Source: Eledone cirrhosa (taxonomy: Eukaryota). Taken from it: a stretch of 64,000 nucleotides of DNA. A program made the translations under genes and the position numbers. Location: positions 4,650,001 to 4,714,000 of the forward strand of contig OZ024745.1 in assembly GCA_964016885.1 (NCBI GenBank). The letters are read 5' to 3'. A model generated the notes under the pieces. It ran no database searches. It was given only the letters and a program-made list of their open reading frames with translations, and was not told where the DNA came from. Positions 47,284 through 64,000 of this stretch are shown here, piece by piece (the stretch's first letter is position 1; every line of letters begins with the position of its first letter).

Positions 47284-47505
47284 TTCTAAAGTGAAAACGT
47301 CTTACAAATATTATAAAATAACACAAGGGAGGTAATAAAGTAAACATAAGGGAGTTAATAAAGTGATTCCCTTTAGCTGGAACTCTCCATAAATTTACAA
47401 TTAGAGGAGAGTTTAAACCGAAGTAAAAGCGTCCTTGACGATAACCCTATTTCACATTTGTTATTTTCGATTGATTTTTAAGCAATATTTTTTATACATA
47501 TATAC

Positions 47506-47553
<48 letters not shown>

Positions 47554-48936
47554 CTAATATGAGATACGATATATTTTAAAGGAAATCATTAATTGGATAA
47601 ATGTTTCTAAATATGAAGTCTATAATATATTAACGAAGACACTGCGTGTTTTGTGGTGTGTGGTTGTCGTGGAAACTGACAGTTGACAAGAAGTAAAATA
47701 ATATACCACCAGGTTAGTGATATGATAAATATAAAACTAGCCTGCTAAAAGGCAAAATAAAACTAGAAGTTATTTGTATTTAATGTTTTATAAATATGAA
47801 GAGAGAGAGAGAGACGTATTTCTTGATTTATAATTCGAGTGAAATATTACCGTGTACACACACACACATATTTTCTCTCCATTTCTGCCAGTTGTGTCAA
47901 GCATTTAAGATTATATTAAAGGATGAGTTAGATAAAAATTAGACTTATTTCTAAGGATCATGCACTTGTTTACAATATTTAGTGAAGGAGACTATTTTTA
48001 TTGGATATATATTTGGTAATTGTTTTTACTATTACAGCCGTCTCGCTTTGGGGGTGAACTTTATGTTTTCCTATTGTTTTTTTTAACGAATATAGCTTTC
48101 AAAACATCGATAATTGTTCATTTTACAACCGGGGAAGGAAGGTGTCGGCGAAAGATTCATTTGAAACAAAAGAAAAAACAACAAAAAATAAAGAAAAACA
48201 AACTTCTACTCAAACGGGAAACGGGTGTAATTGTAAAAAATAATCATATATTTTATTTTTATTTATATTTTGTGTGTAAATGCGAAGATTAATAATTTTT
48301 TCGGCGATATCCAATTTTAGCGGCCTAAATGCCGCTTACTTCAATGTATGAGGCTATTCCAACAAATTTACATTCCCCCTTTTTTAGCCGTTAAAAGAAA
48401 TATAAATTTATTTATTGTTTTTTTTTTGCGATTTATTTGCCACTGGGGCATAGATTTCTTTATTTGCCCCTTTTTTGTTTGTTTGTTTGTTAGTTTGTTT
48501 TTTTGCGATTTATTAGCCTTTTGGGGTCACACACACCCCCGTAGAAAGTGTGCGACCTTTCTGCCAGGGAGCACAGAGAGAGGGGGGTGCTCCCTTCTTC
48601 TCTTACCTGTACAAGCCGATATAGAGAGATGGCCCACTTACACGGGCCATTATTGCTACTTTCACCCATCTTTCATGGAATTGGCTGGGATTGAGTGCCT
48701 TTTTCTCCACCTTGATCCTTCTTTCGAAGTGGTATCGGAAGAAGAGGACCATTTGTTGGCCGGCGACATATCCCCACAGTTTCCTCGTTGCAAACGCATC
48801 TGGGACATTTCTTTTCCAAGGGGTTTCCGTCCCGGAATCTGTGTCTGTAGAGCCTTTCCCGAATGGGCAGGGCCCCTCGGTATAATAGTAAGTATTAGTG
48901 GTTGTAATAAAAATGCAATCAAAATGTAATAAATAC

Positions 48937-49072
48937 CTTCACTGATTTCTTTCCTTATATTATCAACAGAAGTTGGTATGTCACCCAAAGTTCGCTTTGT
49001 ATGTTCCCGAATAGCAGTGAATTTTGATAAAACTGTTTCTAATTCCTTCTCCACAGTAAGACAAATATCCAT
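48937..49072 (-). pseudogene. RMND5: Captured RMND5-like first coding exon (left arm)
   Basis: MDICLTVEKELETVLSKF..., 136 nt ending at a G|GTATTT donor; resembles the recalled RMND5A N-terminus MDQCVTVERELEKVLHKF. Confidence 0.78.
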
Positions 49073-49245
49073 GTGTAGTCCAAAAAGATATAAATCTTTA
49101 AAAAAATTATAATAATTCTTTATTATTATTTTCTTTTTCTGTAAATAATTATTTTTCTATATATCTCAAACCCTGCCAAACACCACATCTGTCCATCTGT
49201 AAATTTAAATGACTGTTCTTTCATACTTATCCTCTTCAACTACAC

Positions 49246-49381
49246 ATGGATATTTGTCTTACTGTGGAGAAGGAATTAGAAACAGTTTTATCAAAATTCA
49301 CTGCTATTCGGGAACATACAAAGCGAACTTTGGGTGACATACCAACTTCTGTTGATAATATAAGGAAAGAAATCAGTGAAG
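49246..49381 (+). pseudogene. RMND5: Captured RMND5-like first coding exon (right arm)
   Basis: Identical peptide and a phase-1 donor at 49382. No downstream RMND5 exons recognised in the window. Confidence 0.78.
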
Positions 49382-50016
49382 GTATTTATTACATTTTGAT
49401 TGCATTTTCATTACAACCACTAATACTTACTATTATACCGAGGGGCCCTGCCCATTCGGGAAAGGCTCTACAGACACGGATTCCGGGACGGAAACCCCTT
49501 GGAAAAGAAATGTCCCAGATGCGTTTGCAACGAGGAAACTGTGGGGATATGTCGCCGGCCAACAAATGGTCCTCTTCTTCCGATACCACTTCGAAAGAAG
49601 GATCAAGGTGGAGAAAAAGGCACTCAATCCCAGCCAATTCCATGAAAGATGGGTGAAAGTAGCAATAATGGCCCGTGTAAGTGGACCATCTCTCTATATC
49701 GGCTTGTACAGGTAAGAGAAGAAGGGAGCACCCCCCTCTCTCTGTGCTCCCTGGCAGAAAGGTCGCACACTTTCTACGGGGGTGTGTGTGACCCCAAAAG
49801 GCTAATAAATCGCAAAAAAACAAACTAACAAACAAACAAACAAAAAAGGGGCAAATAAAGAAATCTATGCCCCAGTGGCAAATAAATCGCAAAAAAAAAA
49901 CCCAATAAATAAATCTATATTTCTTTTAACGGCTAAAAAAAGGGGAATGTAAATTTGTTGGAATAGCCTCATACATTGAAGTAAGCGGCATTTAGGCCGC
50001 TAAAATTGATATCGCC

Positions 50017-50195
50017 ATTTTTTCTACATTTGGCACAATGCCAGCAATTATCTCAGTATATTACTGGTACTTTATTTTATCGACCCCGTAAGGATGAAAG
50101 GTAAAGTTAACCTCGGCCGGATTTGAACTCAGACCGTAAAGGAACATAACTATGCTGGAAAGCATGGCGTCCGACCCTCAACCGATACTGCCAAG
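50017..50195 (-). mobile_element. SINE whose 3' tail is the target of the foldback insertion
   Basis: TTTCTACATTTGGCACAATGCC...ATCGACCCCGTAAGGATGAAAGG...GATTTGAAC. Confidence 0.85.
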
Positions 50196-50609
50196 ATTTC
50201 AGAAAGAATTGTATTTTATGTCTGTCATTCCAAGTTGTTGTTTATATATTTCTATAGTTTTATAAGCAGCAGAAACTCTGCGGTATTTCTTCCGGTTCCT
50301 GAGAGGTTGGCATTCATAAGAATCATTTGTGCCTCTTGGAATCATTAGAGCGTGTATTCTTGTGTGTGTGTGGGGGGGGGGGGCTTTTTCTTCTTCAGCT
50401 TTTTGCATTCTGAGTTGAAATCCTGTTGTGTCTTGCCTGTTTCACTTCATTTGTCAGTTGAAAACCAATGGTTCTTGGATGTCTTTAGTTTTGGACTCAT
50501 GCCTCCTGTTTCAATATGTCTTCCTTCTCTCCCCCCACCTGTCTTGGGGGTCCTGATAACAGTAATTACCACAGCGCCTGACTAAATCAAAAGCACCTCC
50601 CAGAACTAC

Positions 50610-50853
50610 CTGCATTAGTTGTTAGCTGTCAGGACACTGCATCCTTCAAAACTTCCATGTTTCCTGAAATTTGCCAACACTACACCTGACATTCCTCCTC
50701 TATACAAACGCACACATGTATATGTGTCTGTGTATATCATGACTCATACACTGTTTACTTTCCTGACATTTGTACATTATTCTATGTACTATACATGCAC
50801 CTTTGATGAGTTGTAGTGCACCTGAGCACTGTACATGATAATTTTCATTATTA
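50610..50853 (+). mobile_element. CR1 3' end fragment
   Basis: Reverse-complement homologue of 41500-41730. Confidence 0.85.
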
Positions 50854-50949
50854 TATATTGTTATTCATAATTAGTGGAGCTGTCTATAAATATTTGTATA
50901 GAATTTGTTACGTAGGGATTAACTTTAGGTTCAGGGTACAACCTCCACC

Positions 50950-51490
50950 CCAAGCATAATTGTTGCAGGTGCACGTATGCAATGTTTTGTAATGGCTATA
51001 AATTCATATATATTCAAATAGGCTCTGAATTCATCGTCACCTCAAACCTTTTCGTCTGACTCTCATGACATTCTATGCAGAGCCACCAAAAGAAATCTTG
51101 CAAGGCAGTTTTCACAGCTATATTCTGGAGGGCACCTCTCAAAATTTAAGAGGGCTTATATGTTGTTTTTTTTAAAGAGGTTTTTAGATATTCAAGGCTC
51201 CTCGTTGGCTCTCCATACTCTGATGGCTGAACCTCATTCATAAACACCCCGACTTTACAAGCCTTCACTCCTCATAGGGAATATATATAAGATCTTGTAA
51301 TCGCACCCGCAATATTCTGACACCATATAAACAGTGAAGGTTACTGAATTTTGACAATGAAGTTTTTGCCATTGTTGGCAGCTGGCCTTACCAAAGTATC
51401 AGGTGATGCCAGTGATGGTGTTTGGCTATTTCAGAATCTTTGACTCGCTTTCATCCATGGCAAAGCTACGAGTGTGTTGGTTTGCCTAAA
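50950..51490 (+). mobile_element. Highly degenerate CRE-like (RLE) non-LTR retrotransposon C-terminus
   Basis: ~51386-51490 translates LTKVSGDASDGVWLFQNL*LAFIHGKATSVL, resembling the recalled CRE C-terminal motif GD.R...L.QR.S.AIQRGNA.S.L. Upstream boundary uncertain. Confidence 0.45.
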
Positions 51491-59222: not shown

Positions 59223-59544
59223 TGAGTCTTCACAGTTCACATTTCAAGTTGGTGCAGTATTTGTTCCCAATCACATTAATACTGTAACCAACTCTATAAT
59301 GTAGTTACAACTAATACTAATCTCTGATCAAGTGTCAGGTCAAATACAGACATCTGTGTGAATAAGGTTGCCCTGTATTTTATAGATTTGATCATCTGTG
59401 TTGGGGACAGGGAGAGTATGAGGATTTAGACTTTACAAGTAAAAAGGTTGTTGTTGTTAGGTTAGGTGTTGTGGGTAAATGTCAGCAGAAAAACAACACA
59501 AAGGAGATTGATGTACCTAAACAAAACATGGATTACATGAGAGA

Positions 59545-62500
59545 TGATATAGTATTGGTTGTGAAAGATATAGTATGGGGATGAAAGATATAGTATGGAT
59601 GTGATAGATATAATATGGGTGTGAAAGATATAGTATGGCTGTGAAAGATATAGTATGGATGTGATAGATATAGTATGGGTCTGAAAGATATAGTGTGCGT
59701 GTGATAGATATAGTATGGGTGTGATAGATATAGTATAGTTGTGATAGATATAGTATGGGTGTGATAGATATAGTATAGTTGTGATAGATATAGTATGGGC
59801 GGGTTAGATATAGTATGGGTGTGATAGATATAGTATGGGTGTGATAGATATAGTATGGGTGTGATAGATATAGTATAGTTGTGATAGATATAGTATGGGA
59901 GTGATAGATGTAGTATAGTTGTGATAGATATAGTATAGTTGTGATAGATATAGTGTAGTAGTGATAGATATAGTATAGTTGTGATAGATATAGTATGGGA
60001 GTGATAGATATAGTATAGTTGTGATAGATATATGGGAGTGATAGATATAGTATGGGAGTGAAAGATATAGTATAGTTGTGATAGATATAGTATAGTTGTG
60101 ATAGATATAGTATAGTTGTGAAAGAAATAGTATAGTTATGATAGATATAGTATGGGTGTGATAGATATAGTATGGTTGTGATAGATATAGTATGGGTGTG
60201 ATAGATATAGTAGGGGTGTGATAGATAATGTATAGTTGTGATAGATATAGTATGGGTGTGATAGATATAGTATGGTTGTGATAGATATAGTATGGCTGTG
60301 ATAGATATAGTATAGTTTTGATACATATAGCATAGTTGTGACATATATAGTATGCGAGTGATAGATATAATATAGTTGTGATAGATATAGTATAGGTCTG
60401 ATAGATATAGTATAATTTTGATAGATATAGTATAGTTGTGATAGATATAGTATGGGTGTGATAGATATAGTATGGGTGTGATAGATATAGTGTGGGTGTG
60501 ATAGATATAGTATGGTTGTGAAAGATATAGTATGGGTGTAATAGATATAGTATGGGTGTGATAGATATAGTATAGTTATGATAGATATAGTATAGTTGTG
60601 AAAGATATAGTATGGGAGTGATAGATATAGTATGGGTGTGATAGATATAGTATAGGTCTGATAGATATAGTATAATTTTGATAGATATAGTATAGTTGTG
60701 ATAGATATAGTATGGGTGTGATAGATATAGTATAGTTGTGATAGATATAGTATGTGAGTGATAGATATAGTATGGAGTGATAGATATAGTGTGGGTGTGA
60801 TAGATATAGTATGGTTGTGAAAGATATAGTATGGGTGTAATAGATATAGTATGGGAGTGATAGATATAGTATAGTTGTGAGAGATATTGTATGGGTGTGT
60901 TAGATATAGTATTGGTGTGATAGATATAGTATGGGTGTGATAGATATAATATGGGTGTGATAGATACAGTATAGTTTTGATAGATATATTATTGGAGTGA
61001 TAGATATAGTATGGGTGTGAAAGATATAGTATGGGTATGAAAGATATGGTATGGGTGTGATACATATAGTATGGGTGTGAAAGATATAGTATGGGTGTGA
61101 TACATATAGTATGGGTGTGATATATATAGTATAGTTGTGATAGATATAGTATGGGTGGGTTAGATATAGTATGTGTGTGATAGATATAGTATGGGTGTGA
61201 TAGATATAGTATAGTTGTGATAGATACAGTATGGGCGTGATATATATAGTATGGGTGTGAAAGATATAGTATGAGTGTGAAAGATATAGTATGGATGTGA
61301 TAGATATAATATGGGTGTAAAAGATATAGTATGGGTGTGATAGATATAGTATGGTTGTGAAAGATATAGTATGGGTGTGATAGATATAGTATGGATGTGA
61401 TAGATATAGTATGGGTGTGAAAGATATAGTATGGGTGTGATAGATATAGTATGGGTGTGAAAGATATAGTATGGATGTGATAGATATAGTATGGGTGTGA
61501 AAGATATAGTATGGGTGTGATAGATATAGTATGGATGTGATAGATATAGTATGGGTGTGAAAGATATAGTATGGATGTGATAGATATAGTATGGGTGTGA
61601 AAGATATAGTATGGGTGTGATAGATATAGTATAGTTGTGATAGATATAGTATGGGAGTGACAGATATAGCATGGGAGTGAGAGATATAGTATAGTTGTGA
61701 TAGATATAGTATGGGTGTGATAGATATAGTATAGTTGTGATATATATAGTATAGTTGTGATAGATCTAGTATAGTTGTGATAGATATGGTATGGGTGTGA
61801 TAGATATAGTATGAGTGTGATTGATATAGTATGGGTGTGATAGATATAGTATTGTTGTGATCGATATAGTATGGGTGTGATAGATATAGTATGGTTGTGA
61901 TAGATATAGTATGGGTGTGATAGATATAGTATTGTTGTGATAGATATAGTATAGGTGTGATAGATATAGCATAGTTGTGATAGATATAGTATGGGTGTGA
62001 TAGATATAGTATAGTTGTGATAGATATAGTATAGTTGTGATAGATATAGTATGGGAGTGAAAGATATAGTATGAGTGTGAAAAATATAGTATAATTGTGA
62101 TAGATATAGTATAGTTGTGATAGATAGTATGGGAGTGATAGATATAGTATGGGTGTGATAGATATAGTATGGGTGTGATAGATATAGTATGGGTGTGATA
62201 AATATAGTGTGGGTGTGATAGATATAGTGTGGGTGTGATAGATATAGTGTGGGTGTGATAGATATAGTATAGTTGTGATAGATATAGTATAGTTGTGATA
62301 GATCGTATGGGAGTGATAGATATAGTATTGGTGTGATAGATATAGTATTGGTGTGATAGATATAGTACGGGTGTGATAGATATAGTATAGTTGTGATTGA
62401 TATAGTATGGGTGTGATAGATATAGTATAGTTTTGATAGATATAGTATGGGAGTGATAGATATAGTATGGGTGTGATAGATATAGTATGGGCGGGTTAGA

Positions 62501-64000
62501 TATAGTATGGGTGTGATAGATATAGTATGGGTGTGATAGATATAGTATGGGTGTGATAGATATAGTATAGTTGTGATAGATATAGTATGGGTGTAATAGA
62601 TATAGTATAGTTGTGATAGATATAGTATAGTTGTGATAGATCGTATGGGAGTGATAGATATAGTATGGGTGTGATAGATATATTGTGGGTGTGATAGATA
62701 TAGTATGGGTGTGATAGATATAGTATGGGTGAGATAGATATAGTATAGTTGTGATAGATATAGTATGGGTGTGATAGATATAGTATAGATTTGATAGATA
62801 TAGTATGGGAGTGATTGATATAGTATGGGTGTGATAGATATAGTGTGGGTGTGATAGATATAGTATAGTTGTGATAGATATAGTATGGGTGTGATAGATA
62901 TAGTATAGTTGCGATATATATATTATAGTTGTGATAGATATAGTATAGGAGTGATAGATATAGTATAGTTGTGATAGATATCGTATGGGTGTGTTAGATA
63001 TAGTATTGGTGTGATAGATATAGTATGGGTGTGATAGATATAGTATAGGAGTGATAGATATAGTATAGTTGTGATAGATATCGTATGGGTGTGTTAGATA
63101 TAGTATTGGTGTGATAGATATAATATGGGTGTGATTGATATAGTATTGTTTTGATAGATATATTATTGGAGTGATAGATATAGTATGGGTGTGAAAGATA
63201 TAGTATGGGTGTGAAAGATATGGTATGTTTGTGATAGATATAGTATGGGTGTGAAAGATATAGTAAGGGTGTGATACATATAGTATGGGTGTGATAGATG
63301 TAGTATAGTTGTGATAGATATAGTATGGATGGGTTAGATATAGTATGGGTGTGATAGATATAGTATAGTTGTGATAGATACAGTATGGGCGTGATATATA
63401 TAGTATGGGTGTGAAAGATATAGTATGGGGATGAAAGATATAGTATGGATGTGATAGATATAATATGGGTGTGAAAGATATAGTATGGCTGTGAAAGATA
63501 TAGTATGGATGTGATAGATATAGTATGGGTCTGAAAGATATAGTATGGGTGTGATAGATATAGTATAGTTGTGATAGATATAGTATGGGAGTGACAGATA
63601 TAGTATAGTTGTGATAGATATAGTATGGGTGTGGTAGATACAGTATAGTTGTGATATATATAGTGTAGTTGTGATAGATATAGTATGGGTGTAATCGATA
63701 TTGTATAGTTGTGATAGATATAGTATAGTTGTGATAGATATAGTATGGGAGTGAAAGATATAGTATGAGTGTAAAAAATATAGTATAGTTGTGATAGATA
63801 TAGTATGGGTGTGATTGATATAGTATGGGTGTGATAGATATAGTATAGTTGTGATAGATATAGTATGGGAGTGATAGATATAGTATGGGTGTCAAAGATA
63901 TAGTATGGGTGTGAAAGATATAGTATGGGAGTGATAGATATAGTATGGGTGTCAAAGATATAGTATGGGTGTGAAAGATATAGTATGGGTGTGATAGATA
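59545..64000. repeat. 20-bp satellite, >220 monomers, runs off the right edge
   Basis: GTGATAGATATAGTATGGGT / ...GTATAGTT variants. The long YYIYHT ORFs are artefacts. Confidence 0.98.

Follow-up and report, generated by a model that had tools for sequence, protein, structure and literature searches.

A non-autonomous Merlin palindrome with an RMND5 first exon in both arms in Eledone cirrhosa, and a sister copy near the 5' end of a hAT element

Host exons within both terminal inverted repeats (TIRs) of an animal DNA transposon have been described for Turmoil-1, a Harbinger element of C. elegans with inverted repeats of ~760 bp, intron-containing host gene fragments in both arms and nine copies, one of them complete (PMC2572040). 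A survey of 100 animal genomes lists 370 cases of Pack-TIRs, Ssk-FB4 among them, mostly in hAT and Tc1/mariner elements, and such gene-capturing elements are reported there as rare in animals and nearly always single-copy, with four of the 370 being multicopy in reference genomes (PMC8277862). Extension of a TIR by copying internal sequence from end to end is known from the 2RT elements of Galileo in Drosophila (PMC3573991) and from homomorphic Mu elements (PMC10401008). The Merlin superfamily is characterized by 5'-GG termini, an 8-bp target-site duplication (TSD), a DDE_Tnp_IS1595 transposase and TIRs ranging from 24 to 462 bp, and the accessible text of its description mentions no host-gene capture (PMC8101967); an octopus repeat annotation lists Merlin families and, in the part available, never mentions capture (PMC13282606). 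In the mRNA/LINE-1 chimeras, which are spliced retro-insertions of primates, a host first exon is placed 5' of a LINE piece in the sense orientation (10.1101/2025.02.02.635956). The tomato element PM-ZIBP was considered as a precedent and rejected, its cargo being internal to tandem TIRs in the portion of the source available (PMC3310237).

Palindrome architecture and the parental RMND5 gene

The window is the whole 64,000-nucleotide stretch analyzed here (C5:4650001-4714000 of the 3.0-Gb genome). The palindromic element occupies window positions 48303-50016 (1714 bp), has the termini GGC...GCC and is flanked by the 8-bp TSD ATTTTTTC, which is exact at both 48295-48302 and 50017-50024. The left arm (48303-49079, minus strand, 777 bp) and the right arm (49239-50016, plus strand, 778 bp) differ at eight places, comprising five substitutions and three gap columns, in agreement with the near-identical inverted arms of ~775 bp, the termini and the exact TSD described in an earlier note on this DNA. 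The ~160-bp spacer of that note is also present (49080-49238, plus strand, 159 bp), with the addition that it is itself captured RMND5 sequence. Each arm holds the 136-nt ATG-initiated exon with a phase-1 GT donor that had been claimed, the right copy at 49246-49381 (plus strand, 45 codons and 1 nt, GT at 49382) and the left copy at 49072-48937 (minus strand, GT at 48936-48935), and the left arm stops 7 nt upstream of its ATG at a 3-bp microhomology (49077-49079).

The middle of each arm is a LINE 3' fragment consisting of the end of the zf-RVT region and the 3' UTR with an internal deletion, located at 48521-48882 in the left arm (minus strand, 74-78% identical to LINE copies, with Pfam zf-RVT matched on the longer version in copy L139) and at 49436-49797 in the right arm (plus strand, same sense as the RMND5 exon). 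The repeated motif that the earlier note called subterminal is found in the element (repeat families D3, D5 and D6, with D3 at 49793-49913, plus strand), and because the LINE alignment in L139 continues into the first motif copy it is likely a duplicated LINE 3' end or poly(A) signal rather than a part of Merlin. No Rfam family is matched in window 47500-51000, and the open reading frames of 111-178 amino acids in the arms, which overlap the LINE piece, have no Pfam match. To the right of the element, at 50040-50200, lies a very abundant SINE-like repeat, a relative of which is located at the end of the captured interval within intron 1 of native RMND5. Window 1-22000 and 59500-64000 contain long tandem arrays with strand skew (AT skew about -0.46; GC skew about 0.95), and the remaining window contains reverse transcriptase-like and simple-repeat open reading frames.

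The RMND5 identity of the exon is based on the native locus and not on peptide searches, in which the 45-amino acid peptide matches no Pfam family, reaches RMND5A in the PDB at E = 0.036 only and gives nine candidates in a large protein search, none at E ≤ 0.001. A CTLH search leads to a locus at C5:79.55 Mb where an exon matches human RMND5A (E = 9e-21). The native RMND5 gene at C5:79.536-79.559 Mb is intact, with full-length homologues mapping as nine coding blocks from 79536336 to 79558761, a phase-1 join between exons 1 and 2, and exon 2 located 5.7 kb downstream of exon 1; the named homologues closest to it are mostly molluscan. The element peptide is identical to native coding exon 1 at 39 of 45 positions, which bears out the resemblance to the RMND5 N terminus noted earlier, and the other RMND5 exons do not adjoin the element as they would at a native locus, the complete gene being 75 Mb away.

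The parental locus that the earlier note proposed to look for also defines the captured interval. The spacer begins with ~12 bp from behind the Merlin transposase, and from 49092 onward it is single-copy RMND5 upstream leader aligning to C5:79536166. Window 49092-49429 (plus strand) aligns, with gaps, to C5:79536166-79536519 at 89%. On this alignment a single contiguous capture makes up both the spacer and the right arm's inner 200 bp; it comprises the leader, exon 1 and the beginning of intron 1, of which ~48 nt are retained in the window copy, and in the longer capture of L139 the native match extends to C5:79536556. The 90 kb around native RMND5 resembles the element over the captured interval only, so that the host gene fragment has a transposon-free parental locus, and the start of intron 1 lies 3' of the captured exon, which is thus not a spliced retrocopy; both are features by which Pack-TIRs are defined. 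All six coding differences from native exon 1 alter amino acids, and there is accordingly no sign of selection on the captured peptide. In 47 of 53 rows (44 of 50 without three rows counted twice) the exon keeps its ATG, frame and donor, which needs no selection because the copies differ by only 1-2%.

Merlin identity and foldback of the 3' end

Family copies with ends like those of the window element hold an IS1595-type DDE transposase (PF12762 above cut-off in L138, L145 and L223), and several of the PF12762 matches lie directly upstream of the RMND5 piece; the window copy has no transposase. Because the GG ends and 8-bp TSDs are combined with an IS1595-type transposase in same-ended copies, the window element is assigned from its sequence to Merlin as a non-autonomous member. 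The earlier note held that the superfamily could not be decided between MULE, Merlin, hAT and P from an 8-bp TSD alone; with the PF12762 matches it can be. A MULE or Pack-MULE would have a TSD of 9-11 bp and a Mutator transposase in place of the 8-bp TSD and IS1595-type transposase found, and an assignment to hAT was rejected, the same-ended copies containing PF12762 and not a hAT transposase. Among 21 distinct family elements with both ends (loci L001-L060), the TSD is an exact 8 bp in 14, within the 8-9 bp of Merlin, has one mismatch in three and is not found in four; all the sequences differ, confirming a mobile, multicopy element with copies in different TSDs, and a 9-bp comparison fails throughout the elements examined.

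An exact exon-end pattern has 54 + 52 = 106 matches in the genome and an exact terminus pattern 66 + 67, each with none in the control. Spread over 16 contigs, the 100 exon-end matches listed belong to 70 loci, a minimum for the genome, and 28 of these loci have two copies that face outward; a query of spacer plus exon gives 116 candidates, of which the 40 scored are 96-100% alike. The 3024 candidates of a whole-element search were rejected as a copy number and likely include LINE matches. The search for autonomous elements with the same termini, suggested in the earlier note, succeeded in so far as transposase-bearing copies exist; among the copies inspected no transposase of the window's Merlin family is intact, the longest open reading frame being 286 amino acids and the others broken. 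The window element was likely moved in trans by a Merlin transposase. Two separate observations concern related sequences: a cluster of ~20 weak matches (35-38%, residues 55-179) to the N-terminal half of the Merlin transposase at C25:19.2-24.4 Mb has near-constant frames of 150 amino acids, possibly a domesticated tandem family, and a GIY-YIG (Penelope-like) inverted pair is nested in a Merlin copy at L141:4245-6191.

Copy L139 is unfolded and 2894 bp long, with the order TIR, transposase, RMND5 piece (reference 1552-1931), LINE piece (1932-2600) and TIR. Its TIR measures ~64-69 bp compared with 777 bp for the window arms, the length of which is a secondary extension. The window element maps wholly onto this reference, 1537-2894 on the right and, inverted, 1688-2894 on the left, joined at the 3-bp microhomology, and lacks ~180 bp across the RMND5/LINE junction through a later loss. 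The right arm is thus the original Merlin 3' end, its GG terminus being common to the transposase-bearing copies, and the left arm (terminus, LINE piece and RMND5 exon) its inverted copy. Foldback occurs at other points in L140, L145, L149, L223, L224, L226, L228 and L044, some with transposase in both arms, and in the first seven of these the copied end is always the 3' end. A sister Merlin family of ~70% identity without the RMND5 capture folds back too. Further Merlin families (L144, L146, L147, L230 and L231) likewise show foldback from their 3' ends, in some cases with transposase sequence in each arm, and at L145:2046-5873 (C11:53.55 Mb) a fully palindromic Merlin of 3.8 kb carries two outward-facing transposase copies within an exact 8-bp TSD. 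Foldback from the 3' end looks general for Merlin in the E. cirrhosa genome.

It is extremely improbable that the palindrome was produced by faulty assembly or that it arose from native RMND5 by inverted duplication. Neither a listed contig nor a long read was seen to span the whole window element, as such a reading would have it. Against it, short-read contigs of run X1 stop at the arm boundary (49233/49239), with a depth of 332 in the spacer compared with 641 in the exon, depth being a rough guide. Native RMND5 is complete and 75 Mb distant, many copies are flanked by differing TSDs, and the window arms differ at eight places. The inner junction of the window type is common to 24 of 30 loci, two of which form a tandem pair, while five of the remainder are unfolded at the same point and one has a different junction. 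Because this junction recurs in 24 of 30 loci and the X1 contigs break at the arm boundary, the palindrome is confirmed as a real feature and not an artefact of the copy's type.

The explanation of the palindrome as two inverted copies of the 3' end of a Merlin carrying RMND5 exon 1, together with a likely single capture by template switching and likely mobilization in trans, is held with good confidence. An ancestral Merlin would have gained ~390 bp of RMND5 (leader, exon 1 and intron start) and a LINE 3' end directly behind its transposase, a step for which the structure is visible in the copies and the order is deduced. The 3' end may then have served as template for the repair of a break on the 5' side, with copying that went well beyond the TIR before the ends rejoined at 2-3 bp of microhomology, which would place the exon in both arms; such foldback appears to have been repeated with different break points. 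This putative repair of one end from the other matches the TIR extension proposed for Galileo and Mu. The earlier claim that the captured DNA became part of the TIR is borne out by the exon in both arms, with the correction that there would have been one capture behind the transposase and that the arms gained the exon later. The window-type palindrome then spread as a unit, as its new 8-bp TSDs show, and by the statistics that follow the arms of a copy have gone on converting each other.

This last step was examined in the 15 of 30 loci with both inner arms complete, one tandem duplicate being dropped. In the resulting 14 copies, minor alleles occur in both arms of the same copy 23 times compared with 0.92 expected (maximum 5 in 10,000 re-pairings). 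The distance is 1.1% within a copy and 1.6-1.7% between copies. The two arms of a copy thus convert each other on statistical grounds, with the reservation that repeated foldback from one arm is not fully separable from gene conversion.

Locus L235 was rejected as a pre-capture ancestor; it retains 57 bp of RMND5 leader and LINE-tail sequence and is a deletion derivative. Searches with window pieces in other organisms gave two further observations. With window 49109-49355, run X6 of organism C gives one record unbroken across the arm boundary, a spacer depth similar to that of the exon, and loose ends that match the hAT-embedded variant described below; the window-type foldback may, on this weak indication, postdate the species split. 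With window 49080-49941, run X4 of organism B gives an RMND5-like record with 19 differences and, at low depth, element-type pieces that differ at 0-2 positions; these pieces are due either to sample carry-over or to horizontal transfer.

Capture route and the exon within a hAT element

The piece behind RMND5 comes from the 3' terminus of a LINE present in abundance; it has a zf-RVT match above cut-off, is 79-81% identical at the protein level to long open reading frames and has a best DNA match of 87%. Of the earlier statement that genomic DNA and not mRNA was captured, the exclusion of spliced mRNA stands, the intron start being present; a LINE reverse transcriptase may, with lower probability, have copied unspliced pre-mRNA. 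No pre-capture Merlin copy was found among the copies inspected, so that the capture junctions and the order of LINE and RMND5 are provisional. A templated inverted piece of 36 bp is present at the 5' capture junction, ~190 bp are deleted within the LINE piece, and no TSD was found bracketing the RMND5-LINE insert. Because of these three features, a single capture of the exon behind the transposase by DNA template switching during repair is, in the author's judgment, somewhat favored.

With the history of the element otherwise unchanged, the capture could instead be RNA-mediated: during insertion of a LINE into Merlin, its reverse transcriptase would have copied the LINE 3' end and then moved on to unspliced RMND5 pre-mRNA, so that one event delivered both pieces. 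This route is possible and rather less probable. The RMND5 and LINE pieces have the same orientation, with the former immediately 5' of the latter; the LINE piece has a complete 3' end, the RMND5/LINE junction has a 5-nt match, and the two pieces show similar decay (8 of 177 conserved first and second codon positions in the LINE compared with 6 of 90 in the exon). In run X5 one native-type record extends across the 5' capture boundary, which may thus lie in transcribed DNA (strand unknown), and sense-oriented mRNA/LINE-1 chimeras have been described (10.1101/2025.02.02.635956). However, no TSD could be found around the insert, the deletion in the LINE and the templated junction piece fit template switching on DNA, the chimeras in the available part of that source are spliced exons without intron-containing pieces, and among the LINE copies found none resembles the piece by more than 87%. 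The features of the junctions accord with both routes, and DNA template switching is preferred.

A sister palindrome of the Merlin-RMND5 family has entered another transposon. The hAT family L275-L281 (for example C2:364154433-364158872) is young, 4.4 kb long and present in 13 copies (13 candidates, all scored). In the carrier PF05699 and DUF4371 score above cut-off, and three of the four copies with both TIRs are flanked by an exact 8-bp TSD, so that the dimerization domain, TIRs and 8-bp TSD of hAT elements are all present; the full open reading frame of 883 amino acids is kept in two of the seven copies fetched whole. The sister palindrome (1.3 kb) or its remnant lies ~100 bp inside the hAT 5' end in all 13 copies, the Merlin TSD is the same on at least one side in 12, and the sense exon is kept in 11. 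The insert joins a Merlin 5' piece to the RMND5 leader a short distance before the exon; the exon itself has a 45-nt in-frame deletion and is 91 nt long. The intron measures 539 nt, and the spliced frame consists of 31 codons, a stop and two further codons before the transposase ATG.

None of the listed runs is recorded as RNA; run X5 is taken to be RNA on account of a native-type record of 1435 nt that leaves the window sequence exactly at the donor. A further record of 1939 nt starts with window 49352-49381, with 0 differences including the diagnostic base 49364, and likewise leaves at the donor. All 30 of the mixed loose-end letters are reproduced when native exon 2 and the hAT exon are tied letter by letter (computed agreement 0.533, reported 0.53). 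A pattern formed from these letters minus native exon 2 has seven matches and none in the control, all seven being the acceptor 11 nt before the hAT transposase ATG. The splice is thus seen in one contig of one run of this presumed RNA kind, with the partner deduced from a mixed 30-letter consensus. The contig contains the last 30 nt of the exon only and the donor copy is not distinguishable; the summed depths (31.5 compared with 21.4 + 11.2) would fit a full-length exon as well as the 91-nt hAT exon. Away from the splice junction, the element-type records of run X5 do not count here as proof of transcription, since a multicopy element would yield them equally from copies in introns or from carried-over DNA. 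Run X7 gave two short pieces, and the small-share runs X7-X13 were left out of the analysis.

By these structures, a sister palindrome inserted once near the hAT 5' end and the hAT then spread as a composite; if run X5 is RNA, the exon donor is spliced to the transposase acceptor with a reading frame that stops in frame two codons before the ATG. The host exon in the hAT likely acts as a leader exon of the transposase, the sister copy likely serving as a spliced first exon of the transposase gene. The earlier suggestion that the exon could seed new first exons in either direction is supported to this extent for the sister copy, by the one contig of run X5.

That the splice is instead incidental leakage, with the Merlin insert riding along and having no role in transposase expression, is given equal weight with its contrary. 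The hAT has a possible donor of its own ~50 nt upstream of the acceptor, the splice appears in a single contig, two of the 13 copies have lost the sense exon, and just two of the seven fetched copies have the full frame, all of which would suit a passive insert. Yet all 13 copies descend from the composite, and in 12 the same Merlin TSD survives on one side or both. In depth the spliced record (11.2) reaches about half of the unspliced element-type record (21.4), and the insert has the junction of Merlin 5' piece and RMND5 leader shortly before the exon. An extended version of the leader-exon proposal is speculative and considered unlikely: the first exon of RMND5, a housekeeping gene, would have been relayed via a LINE reverse transcriptase, the Merlin palindrome and the hAT, would now head the mRNA of a hAT transposase active in recent times with a leader that both drives and throttles the transposase via the in-frame upstream open reading frame, and this borrowed control would be why all surviving hAT copies carry it. 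The window copy itself is most likely a passenger; no RNA record holding the window element is listed, which is evidence neither way.

Comparison with known systems

The Merlin-RMND5 family places a splice-competent host first exon at its at least 70 loci, often facing both ways. Intermediates of each step are kept in one genome, from which the order of capture, incorporation into the TIR and amplification can be read. The family is a measured case of conversion between arms and a candidate case of a transposon donating a host exon to the transcript of another transposase. A transcript across the palindrome would form a long hairpin, which is trivial for a palindrome, with sequence ~95% identical to RMND5 exon 1, and silencing of the host gene by small RNAs thereby becomes testable.

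Like Turmoil-1, the window element is an animal DNA transposon with host exons within both TIRs. Turmoil-1 is a Harbinger and the present element a Merlin, and in Turmoil-1 the 5' splice site is mutated with no transcript evidence in the accessible text, whereas here the donor is kept in most copies and a spliced product is indicated. The 106 exon copies of the Merlin family, with a traceable origin of the arms, compare with nine copies of Turmoil-1 (PMC2572040). The Pack-TIRs share with the window element captured intron-bearing host DNA, microhomology at junctions and chimeric transcripts with flanking sequence, but their cargo is, in the accessible text, internal and not in both arms, and the word Merlin is absent from the main text of that survey (PMC8277862). 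TIR extension by break repair or conversion is described for Galileo (PMC3573991) and Mu (PMC10401008) as proposed here; Galileo (P superfamily) and Mu (Mutator), however, recruit transposon DNA, whereas the DNA recruited here by Merlin includes a host exon and, in certain copies, a large part of the transposase or the whole of it. The TIRs of 24-462 bp given for the Merlin superfamily (PMC8101967) contrast with arms of 777 bp in the window and up to ~1.9 kb in L145. In the LINE-1 chimeras, to judge from the accessible part of the source, a host exon serves a transposon transcript (RAP1GDS1/L1PA2) as here, but in the present case the intron start is kept, the carrier of the exon is a DNA transposon, and the apparent splice partner is a hAT transposase. 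In the literature searched, to which most subscription papers do not belong, neither a Merlin host-gene capture nor a host-exon relay to another transposase was found. Host exons in both TIRs were known already from Turmoil-1 and TIR extension from Galileo; as far as the available portions of these sources extend, what is new is the Merlin case and the candidate exon relay.
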